44,971 nucleotides of DNA from a virus: IMG/VR virus record IMGVR_UViG_3300026487_000006, one strand, 5' to 3'. The translations under genes and the position numbers were made by a program. The notes beneath the pieces were generated by a model. That model saw only the letters and a list, made by a program, of their open reading frames with translations, searched no databases and had not been told where the DNA came from. The first letter of the stretch is position 1; each line of letters begins with the position of its first letter. This document shows, piece after piece, positions 6,361-44,835 of this stretch.

Positions 6361-8595
6361 TTAATGCCCCGGCTGACCGCGGGTGCCGCGGCGCATCTTA
6401 GATATGGATGAATTACTATCGCCTAAATCGCTGCTGACAGTCTCGCGGATGATTAAGCGTAGTTTACCCTCATCCATCTGTTCTGTGGTAGCCGAATCAA
6501 TCTTTCCGGTGGTCTGATTGACAATCTGAATGTCTGGTATGCCGCTGCTTGACTGACCATTCTCGCCCATAATCTGGCGCATCTGCGCAGCGGTTCTTAC
6601 CCGCGACGCGCCTGCAGGCATGATAACCTCGGGCTGGCCGCGCTCGGCAATAGTCGACATCTGGCCCGCGGATAAGTTACCGCCCTGCTCACGCGCCGAA
6701 CGAATCTTAGCGACGTTAGCCAGACCCGCAGCAACGGCAGCTGCAGCAGCGATAGGGGCCGCAACCCAACCAACGATAGGGATAGCTGCTGCCGACTGGA
6801 ACGCGGCCACAGCACCCTGGTAGGTGTTCATAATCGCATTGGCGATGGCGAAGGCTTTATACATCTTGTTGCCTTCACCCAGGGCTGTGCGCAGATTGTC
6901 GGTCGTCTCCCCCAGCATTGCCGAGTATTCGGTGCTGCGCTTTTTATTATAGTTACCCGCAATAGCAACCAGAGAGCGTTGGTATTCCTCTTCACTGATT
7001 AGACCCTGATCCCGGTACTGTTTGGCGACTTCTTCCTTCTGCTTCTGCTGGATATCGTATAGCTCCAGTTCTGTGGCGTTCTGGCCCTGAATCTGAGCGA
7101 GGAAATTATCGCCTTTGTTATCTTTTTCTAGCTGGGCTTTTTTGCGTTTGTCGAGCTCCTCCTGGCGGGCAGTATCCGCCTCAAGAACGATTTGTGTTTT
7201 GGCGTCCTCGTATTCTTTCTGAGTTATAGCGCCCTGCTCATTTAACTCTTTTGCATTCTCAAGACGTTGGGATTCCGTTGCTTCGATAACCTTAAGGCGG
7301 TCAGTCGACGAACGCTGTACCAGGTCTAAAAAAGCATCGCCCTGTTTCTGCTCCCGCGCTAAAGCTGCGGCATCGCGTTTAGCCTTTGATTCTTCACGAC
7401 GCTGGGCCGCCTTGTCCTGACGGTCAGTCTTTTTCTTCTCCTGTTCGTCAATCTTAGCCACTTCGGTTTCGTATTGCTTATCGGCAGCGGCATTTGCACG
7501 TGACCGTTCAGCGTCACTAAGGCCTTCACGTTCTTTAATCTGTGCTTTAAGTAAATCACGCTCAAGGGCCGCCTGTTCTTTACCTTTAGCACCCCTTACC
7601 TCCAGACTACGGATATAGAGGTCGTTGGACGCCGCGTTCTTTTTATTGGTGTCCTCAACGATTGTTGTTAAAGATTTTTGAATGTTGCCGTTTTCTACGA
7701 CGGCCTGGTTAGCTCCCTGAACAGCACTGTTAAGCTCTACAAACCCGGAGCTTTGTTTACCTAAAGGTTTAGCCAACCCGTCAAGAGCCTTACCCAGTGC
7801 CGCGATGTTTTCACCACTCGCATTTTGTTGCACTGCGGCGAGCAGCGGCACAAGCGTTTTGGCCTGGTCCCGGGTAACACCAAGTTTATCTGCGGTTTTT
7901 TCCAGGTAGCCGTTAAGTGAATCAACTGCCGCGGCGGTCTTAAGCGAGTTTTCAGCACCAATAGCGTTACCATACCAAAGGGTGTCGCCCGCTTTAGCCG
8001 CAGCCTGCGCCGCCTGCTGCATACCTTTAAGTTGCTTGGCCGACGCGTCGGAAGCAGCCCCGACTTTAGCCTGAACTACGGCAGCATTAGCCCCAGACAA
8101 TATTAACTGGCGAAGCGCATCCGAAGCCCTATAGGCCCCGCTTGCAGTTCTTTCCAAAACCTGCTGTAGATTCTTCTGCGCTTCGGATAAATCTTTGGTA
8201 CTTATTTCAGCATCACCTAAAGACTTATACAAAGTTCCACCGATTGCAGAACCCAGAGCAATAACCGCGCCAAGAACTGCGCCACCGGGGCCTAAAACAC
8301 CGGCGAGCTGAGACGCCTGCTGCCCGAAAGCAACAAACACCGAGGTGCCGCTTTGGACCTGAACCACGAAATCCTGAATCTGGTAGCCTGCTTGCTGAGC
8401 CTTAGTCCCGAGACCTGACAACTTCGGCTCGGCTTTCTGCGTAGTGTTGCCGAGGTTGTCGCTGGCTTTATCGGCAGAAGCGGCGCTACTGGCAAAATTA
8501 TCCAGTTCTTTAGCGGCCTGTTCGGCCCCGTCTGTTTTTACTCTGGCTACTAGCGAAGCCGTATCAGCCATCTTCTCTGCCCTCAAATATGGCAT
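6361..8595 (-). CDS. Tail tape measure protein
   Basis: 744 aa. Long Ala/Gln/Lys-rich coiled-coil region, C-terminal hydrophobic Ala/Gly segments, and position after the chaperone genes. The ATG at 8571 (MADTASL, preceded by GAGGGCAGAGAAG) is a better start than 8595. Confidence 0.9.
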   Translation of the reverse strand: MPYLRAEKMADTASLVARVKTDGAEQAAKELDNFASSAASADKASDNLGNTTQKAEPKLSGLGTKAQQAGYQIQDFVVQVQSGTSVFVAFGQQASQLAGVLGPGGAVLGAVIALGSAIGGTLYKSLGDAEISTKDLSEAQKNLQQVLERTASGAYRASDALRQLILSGANAAVVQAKVGAASDASAKQLKGMQQAAQAAAKAGDTLWYGNAIGAENSLKTAAAVDSLNGYLEKTADKLGVTRDQAKTLVPLLAAVQQNASGENIAALGKALDGLAKPLGKQSSGFVELNSAVQGANQAVVENGNIQKSLTTIVEDTNKKNAASNDLYIRSLEVRGAKGKEQAALERDLLKAQIKEREGLSDAERSRANAAADKQYETEVAKIDEQEKKKTDRQDKAAQRREESKAKRDAAALAREQKQGDAFLDLVQRSSTDRLKVIEATESQRLENAKELNEQGAITQKEYEDAKTQIVLEADTARQEELDKRKKAQLEKDNKGDNFLAQIQGQNATELELYDIQQKQKEEVAKQYRDQGLISEEEYQRSLVAIAGNYNKKRSTEYSAMLGETTDNLRTALGEGNKMYKAFAIANAIMNTYQGAVAAFQSAAAIPIVGWVAAPIAAAAAVAAGLANVAKIRSAREQGGNLSAGQMSTIAERGQPEVIMPAGASRVRTAAQMRQIMGENGQSSSGIPDIQIVNQTTGKIDSATTEQMDEGKLRLIIRETVSSDLGDSNSSISKMRRGTRGQPGH

Positions 8596-9342
8596 CTATG
8601 CCCATTATTAACTCAGCCTCAAGAAGACTTAAGCGATGACCGGTCATTGTCTGGTACGCTACCAGGTCATGCCACGTAAGCATATCTCGCGGGTATAGGC
8701 GTATACTATCATCTGTGTTGCGCTGCAAGAACTTTAATCCACGATACTTCTCAAAGGTCCCGGTAAAAATAGAGGGGCACTCTGGCCCCTTATCTTCGCT
8801 ACGCCCGGCCTCTTTAATTACGCCCATCGCGATTAGTGCCGCCTCATGCCCCGCTGATATGCTGTCGAACTTTTGTCTTTTCTGCTTATCAACGAAGGAC
8901 CAGGTGGCGTAGTCATACAGCGCAATTACTTTGCGGATAATTCTTCTCGGCTGTCTACGTGGTGCTGCGCAACAGCACCGGCCAACCCGCGATACTGGGA
9001 GAGGAGTGTCAGAAGGGCTTCTTTACTGAAGGCGTCATCGAACGACCAACCGATAACGAGTTCGGCAGAAAGTTGTTTATTCAGGTCTTCAAGCCGGTAG
9101 CCGCGTTCGTCGTTGTACTTAGCAAAATTCTCTACCGCTTCACATTCTTTTTCCAGCGGGCGTAAATCATCATCCAATTTACGAACGGCTGCCGTGTACG
9201 CGCGGCCAGCCTGTACGGCTACATCACAATCCGGGCCCAACACCTGAAGCCACTCGCCAGAATCTGCGCCCGACGGCAGCAGGATTGGCATTTTAGTGCC
9301 TTCAGCGTGACGGTCTGCGAAATAAAAATCAGTAAGTTTCAT
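8564..9342 (-). CDS. Tail assembly chaperone fusion (gpGT-like) made by a putative -1 frameshift near 8929..8932
   Basis: The -1 frame relative to G is open from about 9013 to 8564, with no in-frame ATG, GTG or TTG between 8926 and 8827 and no RBS at the 8827 ATG. The last sense codons of G read GCA-AAG-TAA, which allows tRNA-Lys to slip from AAG to AAA. Confidence 0.55.
8926..9342 (-). CDS. Tail assembly chaperone (gpG-like)
   Basis: 138-aa acidic ORF directly upstream of the tape measure region. RBS AAGGATAAGATA precedes the ATG. Confidence 0.7.
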   Translation of the reverse strand: MKLTDFYFADRHAEGTKMPILLPSGADSGEWLQVLGPDCDVAVQAGRAYTAAVRKLDDDLRPLEKECEAVENFAKYNDERGYRLEDLNKQLSAELVIGWSFDDAFSKEALLTLLSQYRGLAGAVAQHHVDSREELSAK

Positions 9343-9448
9343 TATCTTATCCTTTGGTTAACAGGTTAGTGGTTAGAGTGTTGCGCCAGCCGGGAACCAC
9401 CCGGTTTTCAGTTGCGAGCCTAGGCGCACAATTATTCTATCAAATTAC

Positions 9449-9477
9449 TTGCACATATCAAAACAATACAATAGTAT
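9449..9477 (+). promoter_or_regulatory. Sigma70-like promoter of the plus-strand cassette
   Basis: TTGCAC-17nt-TAGTAT. Overlaps the palindrome AATAC-aata-GTATT, 30 nt upstream of the 9508 ATG. Confidence 0.6.
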
Positions 9478-9490
9478 TACCTGAAATCAA
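9463..9490 (-). promoter_or_regulatory. Sigma70-like promoter facing the tail chaperone/TMP genes
   Basis: Minus strand reads TTGATT-16nt-TATTGT. The -10 is one arm of the palindrome AATACAATAGTATT (9465..9478). Confidence 0.45.
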
Positions 9491-9507
9491 CCCATGAGGA
9501 ACACCAA

Positions 9508-9852
9508 ATGAAAAACGTAATCACTGCCGTAATCCTTACTTTGTCATTCAGCGCCGGTGCGGCCACCTGCGAGAGTATTGGCAAATCTATTGTGGACCAG
9601 TACTCCGCCGCAGGCAGTTTTACTAACGACACTCCTGAGCGTAAAGCTGCTTATCTGGACCTGGTCGGCGCTCACGTTAACGCCTGCCGTGCGGGTGTTG
9701 ATGTTCGTAAGAAAGGCTTGACGCCTCAGGAGTTAGCCAAGGTCGTTGAAACAGCCTATTCAACTCCTGCCGTAGTAGATAGCTTTACGCCGGTCATATC
9801 TAAATCTATGACCATCACATCCTATACCCAGGGCTATGCATTCGGAGAATAA
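9508..9852 (+). CDS. Small secreted protein (Sec signal peptide)
   Basis: N-terminus MKNVITAVILTLSFSAGA/AT is a classic signal peptide. The mature part has two Cys. RBS GAGGA. Confidence 0.7.
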   Translation: MKNVITAVILTLSFSAGAATCESIGKSIVDQYSAAGSFTNDTPERKAAYLDLVGAHVNACRAGVDVRKKGLTPQELAKVVETAYSTPAVVDSFTPVISKSMTITSYTQGYAFGE

Positions 9853-9855
9853 ATT

Positions 9856-10056
9856 ATGGAAACTTTAGAAATACTCACAGTACCCGCGTGGTTTGACAAA
9901 AACGAAATTCCTACCAGAATCGACGACCTCGACATTATCGCTTACCTTCTCCGCCGCAATGCCTTCGATTCTGCGGATGAGGCATTCGACTGTTGCATGG
10001 GTGCTAAGAAAGTCACCTTTGAAGTAACCATTAAAATGAAAGTGGAGAATATCTAA
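9856..10056 (+). CDS. Hypothetical protein
   Basis: 66-aa ORF. RBS GGAGA, with tight spacing to its neighbours. Confidence 0.6.
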   Translation: METLEILTVPAWFDKNEIPTRIDDLDIIAYLLRRNAFDSADEAFDCCMGAKKVTFEVTIKMKVENI

Positions 10057-10265
10057 TGCCTATCAATATCGTATGTACCAAAGCTGCTGGTCGTTTCGTT
10101 AAGGGTGAAACTTACGTCGCAGCCAAAAAGACATTTGTCGAAGGTTACAGTGTCCGTCCTGTTCAATGTGAATTTTTGCAGTTTATGTTTGGCGCGCATA
10201 TGGATGACGACTTCACCGTAAAGGAAAACGATGGTACTGCGCAATTCGAGCCTGCTAAGGATTAG
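10056..10265 (+). CDS. Hypothetical protein
   Basis: 69-aa ORF. TAATG stop-start overlap with the upstream gene. Confidence 0.6.
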   Translation: MPINIVCTKAAGRFVKGETYVAAKKTFVEGYSVRPVQCEFLQFMFGAHMDDDFTVKENDGTAQFEPAKD

Positions 10266-10327
10266 CGTAGCGCGACTAACCCAATAATGGTTAAATAAGA
10301 CTCTTCCTATTTATACCGAGGCAAATA

Positions 10328-11461
10328 ATGACAGGCACATCTAAAATAACCGACGAACAGCTAAAGGAATGTCTGTCGCAAAACATGACTACCAGGGAAA
10401 TAGCGGCTAAGTATGATATGACACACCGAGTCGTTAACCTTCGTCGCGCTAAACTCGCTAAGAAAGGTTTAGGCCACGGTCGTGACGTCAGCCATATCGT
10501 GCCTGACGGGTACCGGGTTAAAGGCACCAGCGCGCTCACAGACGCGATGGGTAACATCAAGCTGCAGTGGGTTAAGACCGACGTAGACAGCGAACGACAG
10601 CTTGAGATTATGCGCGCCGTTGTAGAGGGCATGTGCTCTGAGATTGTTCCGTTGCCGTGTGTGCCCTTGTCTGAACGCCGGATTGATAAGAAGTTACTGA
10701 ACCTCTACACCGTGTCAGACTTCCACCTGGGTATGCTTAGCTGGGCTGATGAAACTGGCGCTGATTGGGACATGAAGATTGGGGAAGACTTATTCGCGCG
10801 CTGGTTCGATGCCGCGTTTCAGTCCGCACCTGACGCGGGAACAGGTGTTATTAACCTGTTAGGCGACCTGGCACACTTCGACTCACTGGACGCGGTTACA
10901 CCTGCGTCAGGCCACGTCCTCGACGCAGACACGCGCTACCAGAAGCTGGTTCGTTATATGATTCGCATGGTGCGTCGTGTCGTAGAGATGGCTCTCGTGA
11001 AGCATGAGACGGTGAAGCTGCTGGTCGTGCAAGGCAACCACGACGAATCAGGCATGATTTGGATGGCGGAGATGTTCAGCACACTCTACGACAACGAGCC
11101 GCGCGTACTGGTCGACACCTCTGCCGATGTCTACAAGATGGTGCAGCACGGCAAAACCACTCTGTTCTTCCATCACGGCCACAAAGCCAGATTCGATGCA
11201 ATTGAGCCTGTCATGATAGCTAAGTTCCGCAAAGCCTTTGGTGACAGCATCTACAGCTATGCGCACGTCGGGCACCTGCACCACCAGAAGATTGTTGAGA
11301 GTCGTAACATGATTGTTGAGCAACACCGCACTCTGGCCGCTAAAGATGCCTACGCGTCGCGCGGCGGCTGGATGAGCGGCAGAAGTGCCAACGTTATCAC
11401 CTACAGTTCAGAGTTTGGCGAAGTCGGCCGTCTGACTATTTCACCGGAGATGTTGAAATGA
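10328..11461 (+). CDS. HTH domain fused to a calcineurin-like metallophosphoesterase (SbcD/Mre11-like motif set)
   Basis: 377 aa. N-terminal TTREIAAKYDMTHRVVNLRRAKLAKKG looks like an HTH. Metallophosphoesterase motifs appear in order: SDFHLG, LGDLAHFD, QGNHDES, FHHGH, GHLHH. Confidence 0.75.
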   Translation: MTGTSKITDEQLKECLSQNMTTREIAAKYDMTHRVVNLRRAKLAKKGLGHGRDVSHIVPDGYRVKGTSALTDAMGNIKLQWVKTDVDSERQLEIMRAVVEGMCSEIVPLPCVPLSERRIDKKLLNLYTVSDFHLGMLSWADETGADWDMKIGEDLFARWFDAAFQSAPDAGTGVINLLGDLAHFDSLDAVTPASGHVLDADTRYQKLVRYMIRMVRRVVEMALVKHETVKLLVVQGNHDESGMIWMAEMFSTLYDNEPRVLVDTSADVYKMVQHGKTTLFFHHGHKARFDAIEPVMIAKFRKAFGDSIYSYAHVGHLHHQKIVESRNMIVEQHRTLAAKDAYASRGGWMSGRSANVITYSSEFGEVGRLTISPEMLK

Positions 11462-11658
11462 AATATACATATCAGCTTTACTGGCAAGGAAAGGATGATT
11501 TAGGACGGGTTATTTTCGATTCAAACACAACTGTGGAATGGGCTAACCCTGGCACTAAAGAATTGGCAGAGTTAAACGACTCACTATTGTCCTTTGCAAA
11601 GAGTAGAAATGACAATGTCGTGCGGATTGTGACGATTAATATGTGGAAGATTGGTTAA
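11458..11658 (+). CDS. Hypothetical protein
   Basis: 66-aa ORF with an ATGA overlap to the upstream gene. Last gene before the terminator. Confidence 0.55.
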   Translation: MKYTYQLYWQGKDDLGRVIFDSNTTVEWANPGTKELAELNDSLLSFAKSRNDNVVRIVTINMWKIG

Positions 11659-11665
11659 TAGAAAT

Positions 11666-11692
11666 AAGGCCCCTTTCGGGGCCTTTTCTTTT
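11666..11692. terminator. Bidirectional rho-independent terminator
   Basis: AAGGCCCC-tttc-GGGGCCTT followed by TTTCTTTT, with an A-run on the other side. Lies between convergent genes. Confidence 0.85.
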
Positions 11693-12854
11693 AGTACGCT
11701 ATACGCTGAATCACGATAGATGACTGCACCGCGTTGCCCGTGGCCTGTCCTTCCATACTCAACGTAACCGACTCAGGACCGCCAACCTCTGGCGTAGCTG
11801 CCGTTAGCTCTGCGCGCTTCAGTGTGAAGCTCATAGCGCCGTCTGGACCGGTCAGAACGGAGGTAAGTTCAATCTGCTCTTCATTCAGGAACTGTTCCAG
11901 AAGAGTCATGTCGTACAGCTTACCAGCCAGCGAGAAGGTGTTAGCCGCACGGCCACGCTCTACGAAAGCAACAGAGGAGTTACCGAGCTCGTACTGAGCA
12001 GAGGCGCTGTTATCGTTGGTGATGGTGAAGGTATCGATAAGCTGCATCTTCGCTGTACCGTTGAACGCGGCAACATCAACACTTGAGAAAGGCTGCGCAT
12101 CGAAGTTAGTGGTGAAGGTAGAACCCGCCGGCGGACCTGTCAGGATTTCCTGATTGAGACCAATGAACGGGAAGCTGCCGGTGACCATGGCGTTAACCGC
12201 TTGCTCGATGGTGAAGCCTGAGAACTCGACGCCGCGCGTAATCAGATAGCTGTCAGCGCCGCCGCAACGACCTTTGAACCAGGTCAGGATTGAGTAAGTC
12301 TTACACAGGTTACCTGTCTCCAGTTTATCCGCCACAACCAGAGCCGTAGTAGCTGCGGCTTCGTCGGTCAGGGTGTGCGGGATAGCCGCACCTGTGACGA
12401 TGAGTGAGGTAACTGCGGTAACGATAAACGGCAGCGCGTTATCTCCGGTCAGGTCCGGGAAACGGATAAGGTCGCCGACTTCGGTCGCGGTAGTGAAATC
12501 CCCAGCCGCACGGGTAAAGGTTTTAGCGTCAGCATCGACGGTGACTGACAGACCGGCGACAGTTGAGCCTGCCACCCAGGAACTGGTCATAGCGCCGGCC
12601 AGCAGTTCGTCCTGACTCTGTGCGCTGAGTTCGATAGCGTATTCGCCGGCAACCTGTTTGTTACCAGTACGGATAGACGACGTCTCGCGGCTCCCGTCCA
12701 GTTCGTTAGATACCAGAGCGTCACGGGTAATTGCAGGAATGCCGCTGGTGTTGCGCAGCGGTGACCAGCTTGGGTTAGCGGGGGTAACACCTGGGGTTGT
12801 TTCCAGCACATAGAATTGTGCGGTATTCGCGCCCTTATACGGTTGAATAGCCAT
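11691..12854 (-). CDS. Major tail (tube) protein
   Basis: The start at 12854 (MAIQPYKG) has a GAGGA RBS. 387 aa, following the tail terminator-like gene. Call is by synteny. Confidence 0.65.
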   Translation of the reverse strand: MAIQPYKGANTAQFYVLETTPGVTPANPSWSPLRNTSGIPAITRDALVSNELDGSRETSSIRTGNKQVAGEYAIELSAQSQDELLAGAMTSSWVAGSTVAGLSVTVDADAKTFTRAAGDFTTATEVGDLIRFPDLTGDNALPFIVTAVTSLIVTGAAIPHTLTDEAAATTALVVADKLETGNLCKTYSILTWFKGRCGGADSYLITRGVEFSGFTIEQAVNAMVTGSFPFIGLNQEILTGPPAGSTFTTNFDAQPFSSVDVAAFNGTAKMQLIDTFTITNDNSASAQYELGNSSVAFVERGRAANTFSLAGKLYDMTLLEQFLNEEQIELTSVLTGPDGAMSFTLKRAELTAATPEVGGPESVTLSMEGQATGNAVQSSIVIQRIAY

Positions 12855-12855
12855 T

Positions 12856-13269
12856 TTAAATCCTCGCAGTGAAGGCGATAAAATTAATTGATAAAGGGCG
12901 CTTAGCCCATCCATTTTCTACAATCAGCGGCCCCAGGCTCACGGACTGGACTTCTGCGCAGATAGCATTACGCTGAAACGTGCTTCCTGCTTTGAATGTG
13001 GTGTTTAATGAATCGGCCAGCTTATTGATTGGCGCGCTGCCTTTGGTAGAAGCAACGTTGATATCAATCTGGTAGATACCGGCTCGCTGCTCTGTAAAAC
13101 CCAGGTCAGCCTGCTCAGTATCCGCCAGTAACATATAACCGACCAGGTAGGGCGTTGCCGTGCTGGTCGGCGCATCGATGTTCTCCAGGGCGACAGCGAC
13201 GTCGTTAAGCGTTCCAAACGCCTTTAACGGAACATCAAACGCTTTTGTCAGGTCTTCGAAGTAACCCAT
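12856..13269 (-). CDS. Tail terminator protein (gpU-like role)
   Basis: 137 aa, between the gp10-like gene and the tube gene. Call is by synteny. Confidence 0.5.
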   Translation of the reverse strand: MGYFEDLTKAFDVPLKAFGTLNDVAVALENIDAPTSTATPYLVGYMLLADTEQADLGFTEQRAGIYQIDINVASTKGSAPINKLADSLNTTFKAGSTFQRNAICAEVQSVSLGPLIVENGWAKRPLSINFIAFTARI

Positions 13270-18189: not shown

Positions 18190-18219
18190 TTGACAGTTTA
18201 CATAATACTGTCGTATTGT
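18190..18219 (+). promoter_or_regulatory. Sigma70-like promoter
   Basis: TTGACA-18nt-TATTGT. Contains the palindrome AATAC-tgtc-GTATT (18204..18217). Confidence 0.65.
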
Positions 18220-18256
18220 TCAGTCATTGAAACGAAACAGCTACCGGAGCAGAAAA

Positions 18257-18409
18257 ATGGAAAACAAAGTTAAAGCATTACTCATCAAATGGGGCAACAA
18301 CCAGGACGATGTTGAAGCAATGATGTCCAAATGGTTCGAAGTAGTCTACAACGGCAATAAAGATGAATCAGCACGATACATCGCCAATATGATTCGGACA
18401 GCATGGTAA
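18257..18409 (+). CDS. Hypothetical protein
   Basis: 50 aa starting from the ATG with a GGAG RBS. The longer track ORF would need a non-ATG start. Confidence 0.55.
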   Translation: MENKVKALLIKWGNNQDDVEAMMSKWFEVVYNGNKDESARYIANMIRTAW

Positions 18410-18615
18410 TGGAAATAACAGAAGTCTCTATTAGTAAAATCAAGGTGGGTGACACGGTCATCCACCACGGCCAACAAAGAACGGTTTGTATTCGCGCCTT
18501 CGGGTACGACCCGTTTGTCGGTGTTCTTTTGTGGGGCGACAGCTACAACATGGGAAACACAAAAGTTAAAAAGATTACTTTCCCGCGATGGTATAAAGGC
18601 GTACGTTATGATTAA
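18403..18615 (+). CDS. Hypothetical protein
   Basis: 70-aa ORF. An alternative start at 18409 forms a TAATG overlap with the upstream stop. Confidence 0.55.
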   Translation: MVMEITEVSISKIKVGDTVIHHGQQRTVCIRAFGYDPFVGVLLWGDSYNMGNTKVKKITFPRWYKGVRYD

Positions 18616-18617
18616 AG

Positions 18618-18637
18618 AAGCCCCTTACGGGGCTTTT
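18618..18637. terminator. Bidirectional rho-independent terminator
   Basis: AAGCCCC-ttac-GGGGCTT followed by TTTAT. Lies between convergent genes. Confidence 0.8.
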
Positions 18638-18638
18638 A

Positions 18639-18884
18639 TCATTCTGTTGTAACGTTCCTTACCCAGTCCTGCAACCGGTACACTTTCAGCCTGTTCTGGC
18701 GCACACAATCCGAGTTCTGCACATCAATAGCCAGGTCCTCATCAGCATCAGCGGCCGGTGCGCTTAACTTACACGGTGCCACCATCAGCGATGCATCGAC
18801 AGGCGGCAGCTGTTGCGCCGGCGGAACGTACTCAGACGAGCAGCCTGTCAGAAACACCACACCCGCCAGAATCAGTTTATTCAT
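18639..18884 (-). CDS. Rz1: o-spanin (outer-membrane lipoprotein)
   Basis: Start MNKLILAGVVFLTGC carries a lipobox (LTGC). The start overlaps the last 8 nt of the i-spanin gene. Confidence 0.85.
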   Translation of the reverse strand: MNKLILAGVVFLTGCSSEYVPPAQQLPPVDASLMVAPCKLSAPAADADEDLAIDVQNSDCVRQNRLKVYRLQDWVRNVTTE

Positions 18885-19233
18885 GGTCGTAGCCTTCAAT
18901 GTTATTCGCATTTTCAACAGCGCGGCGTTTCAGTTCAACACGCTTAGGGTCGAACTCGCATTTAGTCCGGCCAGGCGTCTGGATGTACTTAACCACCTCC
19001 TGCGTAATGGTAACGGTACGAGCTGCGCCTTTGGTGTCGGCGGCGGCGGCCTTCGTGTCGTTTTGTTGTTGCCGTGTGATTTGCTTTTCCAGTCGCGCGG
19101 CGGCTTTCGTCTTTTGTTGCTGGACTAAGTCCTGTCGTCCGGCGTCCCAGGCACGGTGGTATTGCCACTGGCCCCAGAGAAAGGTCGTCAGTACTGCGGC
19201 CGATACAACTGCCAGAATAATTCTCAGATTCAT
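18877..19233 (-). CDS. Rz: i-spanin
   Basis: 118 aa from MNLRIILAVVSAAVLTTFLWG (N-terminal TM helix), followed by a Gln/Lys/Ala coiled-coil. RBS GGTGGGAG. Confidence 0.85.
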   Translation of the reverse strand: MNLRIILAVVSAAVLTTFLWGQWQYHRAWDAGRQDLVQQQKTKAAARLEKQITRQQQNDTKAAAADTKGAARTVTITQEVVKYIQTPGRTKCEFDPKRVELKRRAVENANNIEGYDHE

Positions 19234-19618
19234 TGTGTCTCCCACCTCTGCGTATAAGTGGGGAGAAGCCTAAGCGTATCCCCACCCCGATACTATTACG
19301 GCAACACACTTTTAATCTTATAGTTGCCGTAAGTCATTGAAGGGACTGGTTGTCCGTTCCTGTCCGCTGTGATTCATCGAAGATGAATAGATTATCCCCG
19401 ATGTCTGTTTGACCGGTGCTGGCGTACGACGCTTAACGCTACAGGGGCTGTTCGGCCTTACGGCCCGCCCCTAGCGTCTCGCTGCGCCCCTGTGGGGCGA
19501 CGCGTGACTTCAGTGCTGTTAGGTCAAGGGCATTATACAAATATGTGTCAAGCTTTTCATAACTCATAATTTAGATAGATTCTTACTGCTTTACCAGTTT
19601 TTCCGGTTAAGGAAATGG

Positions 19619-19647
19619 TTTACAGCTTAATATTAGTGTTGTATTAT
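19619..19647 (+). promoter_or_regulatory. Sigma70-like promoter
   Basis: TTTACA-17nt-TATTAT. The spacer carries the 11-mer TAGTGTTGTAT. Confidence 0.6.
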
Positions 19648-19680
19648 TAGTCCCTCGAAACAACAAAAGAGGAAAGCACT

Positions 19681-19983
19681 ATGGGACAGAAGACACTTTT
19701 AAAAAGCGACGTTAACAAACTACTCCAATTAATTGCTGACCGGGAGTGGGCTGAGCATTTTGCGGAAAGTGATTTAGGACGGAACCTGGAGAGCGCCGTG
19801 ACAGACTTACATAATGAAATATCAGAATTGCAGGATAAGGTCTCCGAACTCCAGGCAAAGCTCGATAATCAACCTGTTGTGGATTTACCTTACAGCGACG
19901 CAATTCGACTTCACGGCAATATGATGTACAGCGATGCCGTAGTCACCGCCTTACAGAAGGCCGGGGTTAAATATAAGTGGTGA
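19681..19983 (+). CDS. Coiled-coil hypothetical protein (paralogue family)
   Basis: 100 aa. RBS AGAGGAAAG. C-terminus QPVVDLPYSD..YSDAVVTALQKAGVKY parallels the 20809 ORF. Confidence 0.65.
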   Translation: MGQKTLLKSDVNKLLQLIADREWAEHFAESDLGRNLESAVTDLHNEISELQDKVSELQAKLDNQPVVDLPYSDAIRLHGNMMYSDAVVTALQKAGVKYKW

Positions 19984-20011
19984 TGTCTTATGGAAACGAG
20001 AGGACCTAAGC

Positions 20012-20161
20012 ATGACATCCTGGCACACAAGTTACTTTATCGATGCCGCGCGTATCGCCCACTATCAGGGCCTGCGTCGGCGGCGCAACGGCAACCCGGC
20101 GCTCGCTTACCAGTCGTTCGCGGAGCGCGACTACTTTATTAAAATGGCAAGAGGAAACTGA
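20012..20161 (+). CDS. Small hypothetical protein (49 aa)
   Basis: Below the 60-aa limit of the ORF track. RBS GAGAGGA lies 7 nt upstream, and the stop is 1 nt from the next ATG. Confidence 0.45.
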   Translation: MTSWHTSYFIDAARIAHYQGLRRRRNGNPALAYQSFAERDYFIKMARGN

Positions 20162-20162
20162 G

Positions 20163-20597
20163 ATGAGTGAAGTTAAGCGTTGGAATGTTGAGAGTGATGA
20201 GCAGGACGGTCCTTGTTCATTATGGAACGTTGAAAGTGCAGAAGGTGAGTTTGTTGAATACGAAGACTACGCCGCCCTCAAAGCAGAGCGTGAAGCGTTG
20301 GCGGTGGAGTGCGCACAGTATAAATCTCTGGCAGAAAGGTTTGCAGAAAGAGCGGATGACTATAAATCAGGACATTTTGGCTACTCGGTCTTTGATAGCT
20401 CAAATGAATTTAAGCAGCACATTAAAACCCCAGCCACCGACGCCTACCTCAACTCTGTGCGGGCTGATGCAATATTTGAAGCAGCCAGCTTAATTGCTGC
20501 TCAGATATGGGAAGAGGACGAAGGGCAAGGTATGGTTGCCGCTATTGACGCGCTTGCAATCATTGAGCAAAAAGTCCGCGCAGGAGAGCCATTATGA
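20163..20597 (+). CDS. Hypothetical protein, Ead/Ea22-like architecture
   Basis: 144 aa from MSEVKRW (RBS AGGAAAC). The Arg-rich upstream extension in the track lacks an RBS. Confidence 0.6.
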   Translation: MSEVKRWNVESDEQDGPCSLWNVESAEGEFVEYEDYAALKAEREALAVECAQYKSLAERFAERADDYKSGHFGYSVFDSSNEFKQHIKTPATDAYLNSVRADAIFEAASLIAAQIWEEDEGQGMVAAIDALAIIEQKVRAGEPL

Positions 20598-20803
20598 AAG
20601 ACTTAACAGTAGACGCATCAATGATTACATTCCATAGTTCTCAGGCTGAGCCTGAGTTCAGATTTATTTTTATACCGCCTGGTTTAGATAAAGGCATTTA
20701 TTTTGTTGGTGGCGACGTGCCCGAATTAGGTGATTCAGTCGATATCGTCTGCGTTAAAAACGACGATGGCGGCCTAGTTCTTCAGTTCAAAACACGGAGG
20801 TAG
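20594..20803 (+). CDS. Hypothetical protein
   Basis: 69 aa with an ATGA overlap. Confidence 0.6.
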   Translation: MKDLTVDASMITFHSSQAEPEFRFIFIPPGLDKGIYFVGGDVPELGDSVDIVCVKNDDGGLVLQFKTRR

Positions 20804-20808
20804 CCATC

Positions 20809-21081
20809 ATGACAAACGAAGAGAAGCATGCCCTGATTGAGCACTGCAAAGAAGAAATCGAAAATCTAAAATGGAGGATGGATCGAACAATAGCCACGCA
20901 GGGTAACGTGGCATACCTTATTAGTTGCCTTAAGAGGCAGGAAATCGCACTCGCCGCACTGACCGCACAGCCGGTTAAGCTGCCTGATGTTCAGGTGGAC
21001 AATCCAATTGATGGATTCTTTTACAGGTGTGATGAGGTTATCGCAGCTATCCGTATGGCAGGCTACGAGGTACAGGAATAA
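20809..21081 (+). CDS. Coiled-coil hypothetical protein (paralogue of the 19681 ORF)
   Basis: 90 aa. RBS GGAGG. C-terminus QPVKLPD..FYRCDEVIAAIRMAGYEV. Confidence 0.65.
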   Translation: MTNEEKHALIEHCKEEIENLKWRMDRTIATQGNVAYLISCLKRQEIALAALTAQPVKLPDVQVDNPIDGFFYRCDEVIAAIRMAGYEVQE

Positions 21082-21590
21082 TGAAAGAGCTGAATGAGTT
21101 AGTTGCTATTGCCGAACGTGCCGATGCATACGGCAACTTAATGAATGCTAATCCGCATAAAATTCTTGCCATTGCCGAAGCATTCCGTGAGCTGGAGCAG
21201 CGCGCAGAAGCAGCAGAAGCGAAGCTGGAAACAGAAAATAAATGGCGTGACCTCGCTTTGCAGTTTGATGGACATCGGATGCAGGCAATTTCCCTACTAA
21301 AAATGATTGTAAATGACGCGCCAGAAAAACAGTTCACATCGGTGCGCAACTTTTTAAAATGCGGCCCGTTATCCGGCGAGGAGGTGATGAATGAGCGTTT
21401 GCTTGTCATTGCTAATTCCCGACCCGCGCCCGCCATAAGCCTGGCGGAGCTGGTGCCGGATGAGTGCGAGCCTCACCAGTCTGGACTTTATGGATGCAAG
21501 CTAGACATGAGGCTTAAAACACCGGACTGGGCAGAAGGGTTCAGCGCCTGTCGCGCCGCCATCCTGCGTAACATTGAGGAAGCGAAATAA
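21081..21590 (+). CDS. Hypothetical protein, Ead/Ea22-like architecture
   Basis: 169 aa with a TAATG overlap and an N-terminal coiled-coil. Confidence 0.6.
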   Translation: MKELNELVAIAERADAYGNLMNANPHKILAIAEAFRELEQRAEAAEAKLETENKWRDLALQFDGHRMQAISLLKMIVNDAPEKQFTSVRNFLKCGPLSGEEVMNERLLVIANSRPAPAISLAELVPDECEPHQSGLYGCKLDMRLKTPDWAEGFSACRAAILRNIEEAK

Positions 21591-21592
21591 TT

Positions 21593-21618
21593 AAGGCCCC
21601 GTAAGGGGCCTTTTCTTT
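21593..21618. terminator. Bidirectional rho-independent terminator
   Basis: AAGGCCCC-gtaa-GGGGCCTT followed by TTTCTTT. Confidence 0.85.
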
Positions 21619-26544: not shown

Positions 26545-26928
26545 ATGGGTGCTACGCGTTTTGATATAACCACGACCGGAGATAGCGCAGGCTCTAAGCT
26601 GCTGCCGGTGAATGGTGCCGATGTGACGTATTTAAGTCCGGCCCTGAGCATCGTCTCGCGTCGGGTGAGTGTTTACGTTGAGTTTTACAATGCCTCCGGA
26701 CAGCCGGTTAACCCCACAGCCGGCAGCGTCCAGATTCTGGGTCGGCCTATGGGCAACGTCTGGCTCGAGGCGGTTAACTCACCCCTTAAAGCGGTCGATG
26801 TTAACCACCCTATGGCGACCTACACGGTGCCGTATATGGATGGCTTGGTGTCACGCGTCTCTATCCGCTTTATCGGCGTCACAGGCGCGGCTATGGCCTC
26901 AGTTGCTATTTACAGGGAGGACGCATAA
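26545..26928 (+). CDS. Hypothetical beta-rich protein coupled to the collagen-like gene
   Basis: 127 aa. RBS GGAGG. TAATG overlap with the next gene. Confidence 0.65.
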   Translation: MGATRFDITTTGDSAGSKLLPVNGADVTYLSPALSIVSRRVSVYVEFYNASGQPVNPTAGSVQILGRPMGNVWLEAVNSPLKAVDVNHPMATYTVPYMDGLVSRVSIRFIGVTGAAMASVAIYREDA

Positions 26929-27839
26929 TGCCTTATCCATCAGCAGGAATGAACGGCAGCGGTAGTCCGGGGCCTGTTGGTCCTAAAGGTGATACTGGAC
27001 CCGCTGGCCCGGCCGGGAAAGACGGGGTTAATGGTAAGGACGGATTACCCGGTGCACCAGGAGCTACAGGGCCAACGGGACCAAAAGGCGATACAGGTAG
27101 TCAGGGTTCGACAGGACCACAAGGACCTTCTGGTGATACAGGGCCACAGGGCATACCCGGAAAAGACGGCGCAATCGGGCCTCAGGGGTTGAAGGGGGAT
27201 ATCGGGGCTACCGGTCCTCAAGGAGCACCTGGTAAAGATGGTGCCGCGGGGGCCGCAGGGACACAAGGGGTGAAGGGTGACACAGGAGCAACTGGCGCTA
27301 AGGGAGATATCGGTCTGACAGGACCGCAAGGGCCTAAAGGCGATACTGGTGCCCCAGGTCCGGCCGGAGCTCAGGGTTTAACAGGGCCTAAAGGTGATAT
27401 AGGCGCTATCGGCTCGCAAGGTCCGGCAGGCACAGTCGGGGCAAATGGCGTCAGCTACAACCCTCAAGCGCCCACCCAACGAGCCAATACGGCAGTCGGA
27501 ACAGCATACCAGCACAGTGACGTAACCAAGCCGTACAAGGTGATTGTTAACGCCCGGGCTACGTCTAACGTAACCTTGCTGGCTCTGGGGCAGACTGACA
27601 GGGTAGAACTGAAGATAGGCCCTACGGCAGCCTCTGTCGCGTTAGGTGCTGCCGGTGGTGTGATTATGGGTGTGTGGGAGACGGGGATTACTGGTATCTC
27701 TGTGACGGTCGGTACGTCGCTGCAGGATGGCGGTCAGCTTAGCGCCGACGTACCTGCGGGGTGGTACTTCTCGGTGAATCGCCAGGCGGGCACATCCGCG
27801 ACGATTGTTAACTGCGTTACTCAGTCGATGACCGCATAA
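26928..27839 (+). CDS. Collagen-like triple-helix repeat protein with a C-terminal globular domain (fibre-like)
   Basis: 303 aa. 54 uninterrupted G-X-Y triplets (residues 12-173, nt 26961..27449). Confidence 0.9.
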   Translation: MPYPSAGMNGSGSPGPVGPKGDTGPAGPAGKDGVNGKDGLPGAPGATGPTGPKGDTGSQGSTGPQGPSGDTGPQGIPGKDGAIGPQGLKGDIGATGPQGAPGKDGAAGAAGTQGVKGDTGATGAKGDIGLTGPQGPKGDTGAPGPAGAQGLTGPKGDIGAIGSQGPAGTVGANGVSYNPQAPTQRANTAVGTAYQHSDVTKPYKVIVNARATSNVTLLALGQTDRVELKIGPTAASVALGAAGGVIMGVWETGITGISVTVGTSLQDGGQLSADVPAGWYFSVNRQAGTSATIVNCVTQSMTA

Positions 27840-30988: not shown

Positions 30989-31100
30989 AATAAATCCCCC
31001 GTGGCCTTATCTCGCCGTTAGTCTGGTTCATTCAATAGCCCCGTGCTGTTTTAGTAAATAGGAATGTTCTGAACGAATAATAACCGCTAATGTTACAAAT

Positions 31101-31124
31101 AAAAAGCCCGCCGTAGTGGCGGGC
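31101..31124 (-). terminator. Rho-independent terminator
   Basis: Minus strand reads GCCCGCC-actac-GGCGGGC followed by TTTTT. Confidence 0.8.
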
Positions 31125-31140
31125 CTTAAAGGGTGTGTTT

Positions 31141-31365
31141 TCAGAAGAGTTGTATTTTAACTTCGCCCTTCAACGTTTCAACAATCAGTTCACCGTCGAT
31201 GTGCTCCGGGTACCCGCGCTCGTCGATTTTAACCCTGACGATTTCGCCGAGGATGTCGTCGGCATATATAACATGCCACTGTTTAACACCATCCAGCCAG
31301 ACATAAGCGCGCTCGCATGGTGCGATAAGTTCCCCGTGAATATCTTCGTCTACTGTAATTCTCAT
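31141..31365 (-). CDS. Hypothetical early protein
   Basis: 74 aa from MRITVDED. ATGA overlap with the upstream stop. Confidence 0.55.
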   Translation of the reverse strand: MRITVDEDIHGELIAPCERAYVWLDGVKQWHVIYADDILGEIVRVKIDERGYPEHIDGELIVETLKGEVKIQLF

Positions 31366-39921: not shown

Positions 39922-42186
39922 ATGATATACACCCCCGATGATGTCTTTATTGACCACGAATCTTTTTCAGAAGCTGACCTTAAACGTGTCGGCTCTTACG
40001 CGTACAGCGAACATAAATCCACCGAGATTCTGCTCACTACCTATGCCTTTGGCGATGAAGCCGTAGAAGCCTACGACGCCACTGCCGGAGGTAAAATACC
40101 AGCGGAACTCCGCGACCTTCTGCGTTATCTCCAACGCAAGCCTGGTAAGAAAGGCAATCCGAAACTAATCGGGGCAAACTACCTCCTGTTCGACCGGCTA
40201 CTTCTCCGTAACTGCTGGGGTTTCGAGATAGACCCGCGCGATATTATCGATACGATGGTGTGCGCATTCCGCCACTCACTCCCCGGCAGCCTGGCTATGC
40301 AATGTGAAGTACTGCAGATTGCCGAAGAGAACGCCAAAGACAAGCGGGGTAAAGCGCTCATACAACGATTCTGTAAGCCTACTCCGAAGAACTATAAAAT
40401 CCGTCGCTATGATGCATCTACGCATCCTGAAGAGTGGAAAGCCTTTATTCAGTACGCTAAATCAGATATTACGTCGATGCGTGAAGTATTCACCGCGCTG
40501 CCAGATTGGGGGAATATTGAGTTCGAGAACACTGTCTTGGCTGTAGACCAGCGTATTAACGACCGTGGCTTCTTCGTAGACACAGCCCTGGCTAATGCAG
40601 CCATCGACGCGGTAAAACACCACAAGATAGAACTCCAGGCAGAAGCTAACGACAAGTACGGCGCAGGCCTGACCGGTGCGGCTTTCCTTCCGACGCTGCG
40701 CGAACTGGCCCCGGCGCACGAAATCCTCAACGCGCAGAAGTCGACGCTTAACGACCTGCTGGCGGATGATGATTTGCCGGATGACGCACGGGTCATTATC
40801 GAGATGCGTCTGGGGGCCAGCTCCACGGCATCTACTAAATATAACCCGTTGTTACTGGGCTTGTCTGCTGATGGCCGGTGCCGGGGGACGATTCAGTATG
40901 GCGCGGCCAAACGAACCCTGCGTTGGGGCGGCCGTCGATTTCAGCCGCAAAACATTTCCCGCGGCTATTTTGACGGAGATGAACTGGCCCACGGCATCGA
41001 AATGCTACTTAAAGGGCGAGCGCATTGGCTTTACGACGTATCCCGCCTTACCGCGTCTACGGTTCGCAGCTGCATCATACCTGAGCCCGGGAATAAGCTG
41101 GTTGTTGCTGACTACTCCAACGTAGAGGGACGTGGACTGGCCTGGCTGGCTGGCGAAGAGACGGCACTGGCTACGTTCCTGGCCGGTCTGGATATCTACT
41201 GTGTTACCGCGGGTAAGATGTTCGGCCTCGGCCCAGACCTGATTAAGAAGACACGTAAAGACCTGCGTCAAATTGGTAAAGCCTGCGAGCTAGGACTCGG
41301 CTACGGAGGAGGTGTCGCTGCGTTCCTGACATTCGCTAAGAACCTCGGGCTGAACCTTTACGAGATGGCTGACGTGATGAAAGGCACATTCCCGGAACAC
41401 ATCTGGGCCGCCGCTAAACGTGGCTATGAGTACGCCCGCATCCAGGAGAAGAACAAGCGCGGCTTTAACGACCAGAAACCTGACCGTCCGTCTTACGACC
41501 TGCCTAAAAATGTGTGGCTGACGTGTGACAGCATCAAGCGCATGTGGCGTGAGTCACACCCGGCAACCTGTCGATTCTGGAATGACCTCGAAGCCGCAGC
41601 GATGAACGCTATTAAGAATCCTGGCGAAGAGTTCTGGGCCGGCGCAGCGGTGCGGGTGAATGGCGACCGGGCGATTAAGATTACCCGAACCGGCACAGCC
41701 CGTAAGCCGGGGTGGTGGTTAAAAGTGGAGCTGCCGTCGGGACGTATCCTGTCTTATCCCGGTATCGGGATATCTGTTGAAAAATCCGTTGAAGAGGATA
41801 ATGTTGGTGATTACATCGCTCATGTTAAGGAAGGGACAATACACTTGCGCGCTGAACCTAAAGTTACTTACCGCGAACGCATCCGCTACATGGGCGAGAA
41901 TCAGACTACACGGCAATGGGGTAAGCAGTATACCTACGGCGGCAAGCTGTCGGAAAACATCACACAGGCGCTCTGCCGTGACCTGCTGGCCGTAGCGCTG
42001 GTGCGTGTAGATGCTGAAGGCTGGCCTATTATACTCCATATTCATGACGAAGTGGTCTGCGAGGTGCCAAAGACAGAAGAATATTCTGTTGCGAAGCTGG
42101 AGGCTATGATGTGTGAATTGCCGTCGTGGGCTAATGGCTTCCCTTTAGCGGCGGAAGGTGCAGAATTAATGCGCTATGCCAAATAG
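39922..42186 (+). CDS. Family-A DNA polymerase (Pol I-like)
   Basis: 754 aa. Motif A VVADYSNVEGR, motif B RQIGKACELGLGYGGG, motif C HIHDEVV. Confidence 0.92.
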   Translation: MIYTPDDVFIDHESFSEADLKRVGSYAYSEHKSTEILLTTYAFGDEAVEAYDATAGGKIPAELRDLLRYLQRKPGKKGNPKLIGANYLLFDRLLLRNCWGFEIDPRDIIDTMVCAFRHSLPGSLAMQCEVLQIAEENAKDKRGKALIQRFCKPTPKNYKIRRYDASTHPEEWKAFIQYAKSDITSMREVFTALPDWGNIEFENTVLAVDQRINDRGFFVDTALANAAIDAVKHHKIELQAEANDKYGAGLTGAAFLPTLRELAPAHEILNAQKSTLNDLLADDDLPDDARVIIEMRLGASSTASTKYNPLLLGLSADGRCRGTIQYGAAKRTLRWGGRRFQPQNISRGYFDGDELAHGIEMLLKGRAHWLYDVSRLTASTVRSCIIPEPGNKLVVADYSNVEGRGLAWLAGEETALATFLAGLDIYCVTAGKMFGLGPDLIKKTRKDLRQIGKACELGLGYGGGVAAFLTFAKNLGLNLYEMADVMKGTFPEHIWAAAKRGYEYARIQEKNKRGFNDQKPDRPSYDLPKNVWLTCDSIKRMWRESHPATCRFWNDLEAAAMNAIKNPGEEFWAGAAVRVNGDRAIKITRTGTARKPGWWLKVELPSGRILSYPGIGISVEKSVEEDNVGDYIAHVKEGTIHLRAEPKVTYRERIRYMGENQTTRQWGKQYTYGGKLSENITQALCRDLLAVALVRVDAEGWPIILHIHDEVVCEVPKTEEYSVAKLEAMMCELPSWANGFPLAAEGAELMRYAK

Positions 42187-44809: not shown

Positions 44810-44835
44810 AAGGCCCCTTCCGGGGCCTTAGTTTT
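44810..44835. terminator. Bidirectional rho-independent terminator
   Basis: AAGGCCCC-ttcc-GGGGCCTT followed by AGTTTT. Lies between convergent genes. Confidence 0.85.

Follow-up and report, generated by a model that had tools for sequence, protein, structure and literature searches.

A standard accessory island in the tail module of a Guernseyvirinae-type phage, with a probable stand-alone DNA phosphodiesterase

The IMG/VR virus record IMGVR_UViG_3300026487_000006 was analyzed over its full stretch of 44,971 nucleotides (the window), which is a siphophage genome of the Guernseyvirinae type. The object of the study is the region 9343–11692, where five plus-strand open reading frames (ORFs) of 114, 66, 69, 377 and 66 amino acids (aa) are located between the minus-strand genes for the tail assembly chaperone and the tail tube protein. 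A previous sequence-only reading had described these five ORFs, all of which were found where it had placed them, as a self-contained and possibly novel cassette encoding a secreted protein and a fusion of a helix-turn-helix (HTH) to a metallophosphoesterase (MPE). Our analysis makes it probable that the region is a standard accessory island splitting the Guernseyvirinae tail module, which carries a stand-alone DNA phosphodiesterase tethered by its HTH, and not a dedicated five-gene system.

The island and its contents in related phages

The layout of the island was studied in 49 loci with the order chaperone (minus strand), enzyme (plus strand) and tube (minus strand), in which all the plus-strand ORFs between the tail genes were clustered. 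The same arrangement was present in Pantoea phage AH01 (the closest GenBank record, with around 90% nucleotide identity across part of the region), in Kagunavirus SHAK7858 and in Bas71, and the records of Kagunavirus, Jerseyvirus and Pantoea phages already have this island annotated together with the enzyme, in such a way that the arrangement itself is not new. The islands of AH01 (genes 39–41), Sciku (genes 20–24) and Bas71 (genes 21–24) resemble that of the window in position, orientation, divergent spacer, terminator and enzyme, with identities to AH01 of 98% for the enzyme and 63% within the family of the 114-aa protein. By contrast, the window has two extra orphan genes between the first slot and the enzyme, and an orphan of its own downstream of the enzyme, where AH01 carries a gene for a 161-aa nuclease-like protein.

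The island was also seen when the tube gene alone was used to find it, in phages Sciku, vB_STM-ZS and Shewanella phage 3/49. In Sciku, a Kagunavirus, the genes between annotated terminators are those for Imm, the enzyme and three hypothetical proteins. The island of Shewanella phage 3/49 encodes a 60-aa membrane protein and a 129-aa protein, and that of Salmonella phage vB_STM-ZS a 120-aa homologue of the 114-aa protein, the enzyme being absent from both. Since it is missing from the islands of some relatives, the enzyme is dispensable there, and thus it is the usual but not the obligatory occupant of the island; the genes for the enzyme and for the 114-aa protein are separable, and they are the only two of the five that recur elsewhere. 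An opposite-strand island headed by a small envelope protein was found in every phage of the group examined.

Downstream of the enzyme, the 49 loci carry a 76-aa gene (23 loci), a HAD_PNKP phosphatase with a P-loop kinase (17 loci), HNH_3 homing endonucleases (6 loci), Rha/Ant genes (5 loci) and other small genes. The phosphatase (162 aa) and the kinase (184–189 aa, annotated as dNMP kinase) were always found as a pair, in loci L002, L016 and 15 others, and they look like a split version of the T4 polynucleotide kinase/phosphatase. We propose an island in which the order of the slots would be fixed and their contents exchangeable, with slot 1 always given to a small envelope-targeted protein, the large gene usually encoding an enzyme of the phrog_704 family, and the remaining slots taken by lineage-specific cargo, which elsewhere would consist of the split polynucleotide phosphatase and kinase, homing endonucleases, Rha/Ant regulators and small membrane proteins.

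The three small ORFs of the window (9856–10056, 66 aa; 10056–10265, 69 aa; 11458–11658, 66 aa; all plus strand) fit with such lineage-specific orphans. None of them matched Pfam, PHROGs, NCBIfam or PADLOC, and no relative was detected by tblastn among 50,697 phage records or by phmmer among the ORFs of around 300 fetched loci. The ORF at 11458–11658 had only its own cluster of seven members among 5.8 billion proteins, and a scan of IMG/VR returned only near-identical copies of it. They are nevertheless probably real genes, because they have Shine–Dalgarno boxes and remain intact, with conservative substitutions, in 3, 3 and 7 slightly different protein variants, respectively. In the closest relatives, whose enzymes are 93–99% identical to that of the window, the two middle ORFs are absent and the slot of ORF 11458–11658 is occupied by unrelated genes, namely a 51-aa, an HNH or a 161-aa gene.

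The secreted protein is encoded at 9508–9852 (plus strand), in the first slot. As had been read from the sequence, it carries a Sec signal peptide (MKNVITAVILTLSFSAGA|A), which is followed by two invariant cysteines (C21 and C60), and it belongs to phrog_14165, a family of unknown function. Its AlphaFold2 model (pLDDT 73) has four helices, and the search of this fold against the Protein Data Bank (PDB) gave no match better than an E-value (E) of 2.6. Among the 49 loci, slot 1 holds an Imm_superinfect protein (PF14373, E 9e-13) in 29, a 108-aa two-cysteine protein in 12, the 114-aa family in 6 and other genes in 2, one of them for another membrane protein, and no locus contains two slot-1 families. 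The 108-aa and 114-aa secreted families are probably distant homologues, as judged by hhalign (E 3.6e-5, probability 71%), which aligns both cysteines and a K-x-G-L-x-P-Q motif. The 114-aa protein showed neither a Pfam match to the T4 Imm family PF14373 nor its two-transmembrane layout: Imm is a two-pass membrane protein, whereas the 114-aa protein is predicted to be periplasmic, with a cleavable signal followed by four soluble helices.

Superinfection exclusion, which the sequence-only reading had listed among its guesses, is the likely candidate role for the 114-aa protein, because sister phages have a T4 Imm-family protein in that very slot, and never alongside the two-cysteine secreted protein. 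We infer this role solely from the export signal, the rapid replacement of the gene and its strict alternation with Imm. The 114-aa protein would block the entry of a second phage, and the two-cysteine secreted proteins may be a new kind of exclusion factor, interchangeable with T4 Imm.

When genomes are compared in which the adjacent genes have a synonymous divergence (dS) of 0.4–0.5, the dS of the 114-aa gene is saturated (1.4–3), and the gene is therefore a swapped allele. The chaperone of the window is only 48–51% identical to those of its closest relatives (L001 and L009–L011) and 71% identical to that of the Bas71-type Kagunavirus locus L003, whereas the enzyme and the tube protein are 93–99% identical to those of the same closest relatives. 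Because of this identity pattern and of the swapped 114-aa allele, the edge of the island is a recombination junction, at which the genome seems to have exchanged its tail-tip half.

The 377-aa enzyme and its probable substrate

The gene for the 377-aa protein (10328–11461, plus strand) belongs to the phrog_704 / phage T1 gp16 family. The protein matches phrog_704, labelled "DNA repair exonuclease", with E 1.2e-158, in such a way that residues 5–377 align to profile positions 2–390 of 390, and its second match in PHROGs is phrog_284, labelled "exonuclease". T1 gp16, which gave E 7e-155 with the phrog_704 profile, also has 377 aa, is 46% identical and shares the HTH plus metallophosphoesterase architecture, without any structural difference; what differs is the site of the gene, which in T1 lies away from the tail module. 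Relatives of the enzyme were detected by tblastn in 2,045 of the 50,697 phage records, spread over Guernseyvirinae, Drexlerviridae, some Autographiviridae, Vibrio phages, roseophages and Campylobacter phages, and an exhaustive search yielded 4,422 representative clusters at 50% identity. In GenBank, members are labelled as putative phosphoesterase, as HTH and metallophosphatase protein or as winged-HTH protein. The enzyme thus belongs to a very large and already catalogued family, and the island itself is repeatedly annotated in the lineage.

The active site of the enzyme is intact. The motifs DFH, GDLAHFD, GNHD, HHGH and GHLHH are all present, and in an alignment of 118 sequences D131, H133, G179, D180, N237, H238, H283, G315 and H318 are invariant, while H183 (from GDLAH, motif II) and H316 are conserved in at least 90% of the sequences. 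None of the metal ligands is mutated in the 377-aa protein. The Pfam PF00149 score (20.5) falls just under the cut-off of 21.5. The AlphaFold2 model (mean pLDDT 92.6) has a three-helix HTH (residues 9–45), a beta-hairpin (62–86), a helix (88–103) and a phosphoesterase core (120–377), so the fusion that had been proposed from the motifs holds in the predicted structure. The HTH weakly resembles the LuxR/GerE type (Pfam E 0.055; GerE in the PDB, E 0.027). As the core runs to residue 377, both the C-terminal capping domain of the Mre11/SbcD type and the Rad50/SbcC-binding helices are absent.

In order to place the fold, the model was compared with solved structures by Foldseek. The top matches were the PolD DP1 exonuclease, Mre11 and Rv0805, all of them with TM-scores (TM) around 0.4; LpxH, GpdQ and purple acid phosphatases were also found, with all neighbours at TM of around 0.3–0.5, and many solved MPE structures were matched at probability 1.00. 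Rv0805 (E 1.6e-7, TM 0.35/0.43) was no better than the nucleases. The modelled fold therefore places the enzyme in the metallophosphoesterase superfamily while leaving its substrate undiscriminated. At the sequence level the matches among solved structures were all weak and limited to Thermotoga maritima Mre11/SbcD and GerE-type HTH domains; the alignment with the former covers DxH and GDLxH, with GDLAH opposite GDLLH. Neither NCBIfam nor PADLOC searches gave any match for the five proteins of the island.

The selection acting on the gene was measured against four close relatives. The ratio of nonsynonymous to synonymous divergence (dN/dS) was 0.015–0.05 for the enzyme and 0.03–0.056 for the tail tube protein, so the enzyme is under purifying selection as strong as that on the tube.

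The genes around the enzyme were examined in other lineages, using loci gathered with four divergent single queries and a Pfam scan covering the two genes to the left and the two to the right of it in each of 59 lineages (clustered below 75% identity). No constant partner appeared among them; the commonest neighbours occur in 3–4 of the 59 lineages each, such as Holliday-junction resolvases (4), HAD_PNKP (4) and a dATP/dGTP diphosphohydrolase domain (4), and further neighbours were HNH endonucleases, lysis genes, methylases, RusA and helicases. In T1 and other Drexlerviridae such as herni, the enzyme gene closes a replication block with helicase and methylase genes and adjoins the lysis genes, and podophages Reminis and Nifs112 have genes for endonuclease VII, the enzyme and a PNKP-type phosphatase, with a dNMP kinase and an ATP-dependent DNA ligase nearby. 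DNA and nucleotide metabolism is the common thread of these neighbourhoods, in which the enzyme would act by itself. In unrelated phages, among them T1 (L012, 42028–42510) and L010 (5131–5619), the enzyme gene is repeatedly followed at once by an HNH homing endonuclease gene, a recurrence that is expected for selfish elements targeting a conserved gene.

The proposal that the enzyme might be a nuclease similar to SbcD/Mre11 stood in part. Mre11/SbcD and the archaeal PolD DP1 are its best sequence and fold neighbours among solved structures, and they have in common with it the phosphoesterase fold with two metals and the set of motifs, GDLxH and GNHD among them. By contrast, the structural similarity stays at TM around 0.4, the enzyme has an additional N-terminal HTH, and it lacks the capping domain. 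A Rad50/SbcC partner was looked for in the island, in the scanned large ORFs of the window's plus-strand and replication regions and among the neighbours in the 59 lineages, and none was found. E. coli SbcD moreover falls in phrog_100, and not in phrog_704 or phrog_284. A canonical SbcD/Mre11 identity was thus rejected.

Most likely, the enzyme acts in the DNA metabolism of the phage as a DNA phosphodiesterase that depends on Mn and needs no partner, because it joins a DNA-binding domain to an Mre11-like motif II, because its nearest fold and sequence neighbours are nucleases, because it is widely distributed and selected like a housekeeping gene, and because its neighbourhoods are those of DNA metabolism and there is a mycobacteriophage precedent for host DNA damage. 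In this mechanism the HTH would tether the enzyme to duplex DNA, and a two-metal centre (probably Mn2+) formed by D131, H133, D180, N237, H283, H316 and H318, with H183 and H238 as catalytic helpers, would hydrolyse DNA phosphodiester bonds without a Rad50/SbcC ATPase. Its role could then be the degradation of host DNA or the trimming of DNA ends for recombination-dependent replication, and this role would also blunt host responses, as in the distantly related mycobacteriophage enzyme. That enzyme, the metallophosphoesterase Gp48 of mycobacteriophage A10ZJ24, is reported to be made early in infection, to act as a phosphodiesterase and to damage the DNA of the host, by which host defence genes are silenced (PMC12287305). 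Gp48 and Bxb1 gp47 (phrog_221, annotated as metallophosphoesterase) are also stand-alone phage metallophosphoesterases, but they have around 255 aa and no HTH, and their kinship to the 377-aa enzyme is at the superfamily level only, with an hhalign probability of 8.5% (E 0.004) that covers just motifs III–V.

Several points weigh against this explanation. The presence of the enzyme in 49/49 loci is circular, as these were fetched with the enzyme as bait, and it is absent from the island in the Salmonella phages of the vB_STM-ZS type and in Shewanella phage 3/49. Rv0805, GpdQ and LpxH come near-equal to Mre11 in Foldseek (TM around 0.3–0.5), in such a way that nucleases are not separated from the rest, and the comparison of the 118-sequence profile with single sequences of E. 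coli SbcD and CpdA was uninformative, given that hhalign gave probabilities of 3% and 2%, respectively, and that this single-sequence test is blind to both. The exclusion role of the 114-aa protein is an argument from position; neither its sequence nor its fold resembles Imm or any solved structure. Finally, the literature searched held no experimental study of the phrog_704 family or of the island, and no activity, substrate or phenotype of any family member, in line with the earlier statement that no role had been described.

Other roles for the enzyme have to be weighed against the same data. A bolder version, to which we grant a limited chance, is that enzymes of the T1 gp16 type are DNA-tethered nucleases that destroy or disable the host chromosome early in infection, which would serve thousands of virulent phages of Gram-negative hosts as a general counter-defence and for nucleotide scavenging. 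T1 mutants defective in host DNA degradation were reportedly mapped once, and gp16 may correspond to one of them. The gene neighbours bring in another function, the healing of ends, for which the central domain of Clostridium thermocellum Pnkp offers a comparison: by removing 2',3'-cyclic or 3'-phosphate ends, the enzyme would join a polynucleotide kinase/phosphatase and a ligase in mending tRNA or DNA that nucleases of host defence have cut. A phosphatase of the HAD_PNKP type (E 3e-20) and the P-loop kinase directly follow the enzyme gene in the 17 of 49 Guernseyvirinae loci mentioned above, HAD_PNKP is a downstream neighbour in 4/59 lineages, Reminis and Nifs112 show the order endonuclease VII, enzyme, PNKP or phosphatase and ATP-dependent ligase, and T1 has a PNK, at another site of its genome. 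We nevertheless hold end healing to be unlikely: the island of the window has no PNKP or kinase gene and none was seen among the ORFs scanned, this neighbour is missing in most lineages, a HAD phosphatase beside an MPE phosphatase would be redundant, and the HTH points to duplex DNA.

The HTH could also be the main function of the protein, acting as a regulator, for instance of the divergent promoters or of the operon of the tail genes, or else assisting another enzyme of DNA, with the esterase fold being secondary. This is improbable. The HTH is indeed conserved across the family (in the alignment consensus and the AlphaFold2 model), the gene is next to a highly conserved regulatory spacer with inverted repeats, and Bxb1 gp47, which also carries a metallophosphoesterase annotation, reportedly acts as a recombination directionality factor; but the catalytic residues are invariant in 118 diverse sequences, which argues for catalysis, the N-terminal region is replaced in many distant homologues, the enzyme genes of Drexlerviridae and podophages have no such spacer adjoining, and gp47 belongs to a different family. 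Similarly improbable is the reading in which the enzyme counters host defence by hydrolysing the cyclic-nucleotide signals of the immune systems CBASS, Pycsar, Thoeris and type III CRISPR, one of the inferences offered in the sequence-only reading. Its metal site is complete, Rv0805, a cAMP phosphodiesterase, and GpdQ come out about equal to Mre11 in Foldseek, and the island that hosts it otherwise collects host-interaction genes. On the other hand, it evolves slowly under purifying selection and is retained in many phage families including that of T1, unlike typical anti-defence cargo, a DNA-binding HTH would be of no use with a small molecule as substrate, motif II has the GDLxH form of Mre11, and PADLOC gave no match; the known signal-degrading phage enzymes Acb1 and Apyc1 have other folds. 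As for the five genes forming one co-adapted system for host takeover or counter-defence with interdependent parts, this is hardly credible. They do form a single, tightly spaced unit from promoter to terminator, with an ATGA overlap at two of its junctions, and the same five proteins recur in a few contigs, but these are near-identical to one another and co-occurrence is confined to them; the closest relatives lack the two middle ORFs and have other genes downstream, genes other than the enzyme are swapped freely in the 49 loci, the 114-aa family occurs without the enzyme, and most phages have the enzyme without the 114-aa family. An HTH-tethered DNA phosphodiesterase within an exchangeable island is therefore the explanation that we retain.

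The divergent spacer, its structured RNA and the terminators

The island is separated from the chaperone gene by a spacer of 165 bp (9343–9507), which in phages of the Jersey, K1G and AH01 types is far more conserved than the genes on either side. Most of this conservation belongs to the minus strand, and the spacer contains inverted repeats. An ORF within it (9354–9497, plus strand, 47 aa) was dismissed as a gene, as it overlies the conserved RNA and promoter spacer and its open frames differ among relatives.

Two overlapping promoter-like sites of the sigma-70 type were found in the spacer in divergent orientation. The one for the island is that proposed in the sequence-only reading (9449–9477, plus strand, TTGCAC-17-TAGTAT). 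It matches the consensus at only 7/12 positions and was not called by the promoter scan, and its motif was not common to the other plus-strand units of the window, but all of the distinct homologous spacers (46/46) have TTGCNN-17-TAnTAT in this place, in such a way that its assignment as a promoter is supported by conservation and not by strength. The site for the tail operon (9434–9461, minus strand, TTGATA-16-TG-n-TAGAAT) has a 10/12 match and an extended -10 element, and 46/46 distinct relatives have TGn followed by TA...T (TGnTAGAAT type), lying 6 nt before an RNA motif.

This motif (9364–9430, minus strand) is a structured RNA of three helices, probably of the int-alpA type, matching Rfam RF02996 over its full length. 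In the window the score is 25.5 bits, under the cut-off of 35.8, with a weakened helix 2; the curated value is reached by the orthologous elements of Kagunavirus in loci L002 (36.6 bits) and L003 (35.8 bits). Using 22 distinct sequences, 96.1% of the cells were found to pair in the predicted structure, against 31–61% in slid controls; four pairs have changed on both sides, and 0/500 shuffles reached the covariation score. Ten sequences contain a G-U pair that would read as an A-C mismatch on the plus strand, which favours the minus strand. In loci L014 and L064, both partners of the loop-closing G-C pair of helix 3 (alignment columns 36 and 42) have changed to A and A. This change is not compensatory, and it may mean that the pair is recognised rather than just paired, or that the loop is widened.

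Since the motif starts 6 nt downstream of the conserved extended -10 element, the int-alpA element appears to be the 5' leader of the chaperone/tape-measure tail operon. An int-alpA RNA is usually found next to integrase or alpA genes, in contrast to its location here at the 5' end of a tail-gene operon. In the literature searched, the family was mentioned by a single paper, and it is not treated in the text of the paper that discovered it. Past the terminator that lies behind the tube gene, the tail operon has to be started anew, and we propose that the minus-strand promoter would do this, with a transcript that opens with the RNA leader, which may control the operon.

The plus-strand promoter would drive the island up to a bidirectional terminator in common with the tube gene. 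This terminator, AAGGCCCC-TTTC-GGGGCCTT at 11666–11685, has a stem of 8 bp with 6 GC pairs and was called on both strands by the scan, in agreement with what had been read from the sequence. The same stem, AAGGCCCC-N4-GGGGCCTT, is found at 11666–11685, 21593–21612 and 44810–44829, whereas 0.04 copies are expected by chance, and each of the three copies closes a plus-strand transcription unit. The island thus has the strand and the exact terminator stem in common with the unit of replication genes, which gives mild support to a non-late expression of the island.

Other features of the window and meaning of the locus

On the left flank, the tail assembly chaperone (G product; 8926–9342, minus strand) matches PF08748 with E 3e-5, and its -1 frameshift partner or extension (8564–8827, minus strand) matches PF23812 with E 4e-16; on the right flank, the tail tube protein (11691–12914, minus strand) matches PF18906 with E 2e-37. 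All five ORFs of the island have a GGAG/GAGG box 7–10 nt before their start codons. The ATGA overlaps join ORF 10056–10265 with its preceding gene and ORF 11458–11658 with that of the enzyme, to which it is translationally coupled. A minus-strand ORF of 113 aa (10291–10632), antisense within the enzyme gene, was dismissed as a gene.

A second opposite-strand island, with around eight small plus-strand ORFs (60–184 aa), lies at around 18200–21600 inside the minus-strand structural region and finishes at the terminator at 21593; its two largest ORFs had no Pfam match. The replication module of the window encodes a family A polymerase, a DUF2800 nuclease, a single-stranded DNA-binding protein, an SNF2 helicase and a primase-helicase. 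In the polymerase (39922–42186, plus strand, 754 aa) the Pfam match is confined to residues 378–481, and Pfam found no exonuclease domain in the N-terminal 370 residues. At 26928–27839 (plus strand) a 303-aa protein contains collagen triple-helix repeats (PF01391, E 1e-26). A weak Rfam match to Trp_leader at 31098–31189 (minus strand; 26.4 bits against a cut-off of 41, E 0.28) is probably due to chance.

Within its phage lineage the locus is an ordinary one, and its five genes are not to be treated as one system. Its enzyme family, represented in at least 2,045 sequenced phage records and with a constraint like that of a structural protein, includes many phages studied for therapy (Klebsiella Webervirus, Salmonella Jerseyvirus and E. 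coli Kagunavirus) as well as the classical T1. Slot 1 constitutes a natural experiment in which Imm-like and secreted two-cysteine proteins alternate, and the int-alpA RNA is placed at a defined position, the 5' end of the tail operon; if its role as a leader controlling this operon is true, this would be the first function for an orphan motif. The interest of the locus thus resides in the function of the T1 gp16 family, in the alternation between Imm and two-cysteine proteins and in the int-alpA leader.

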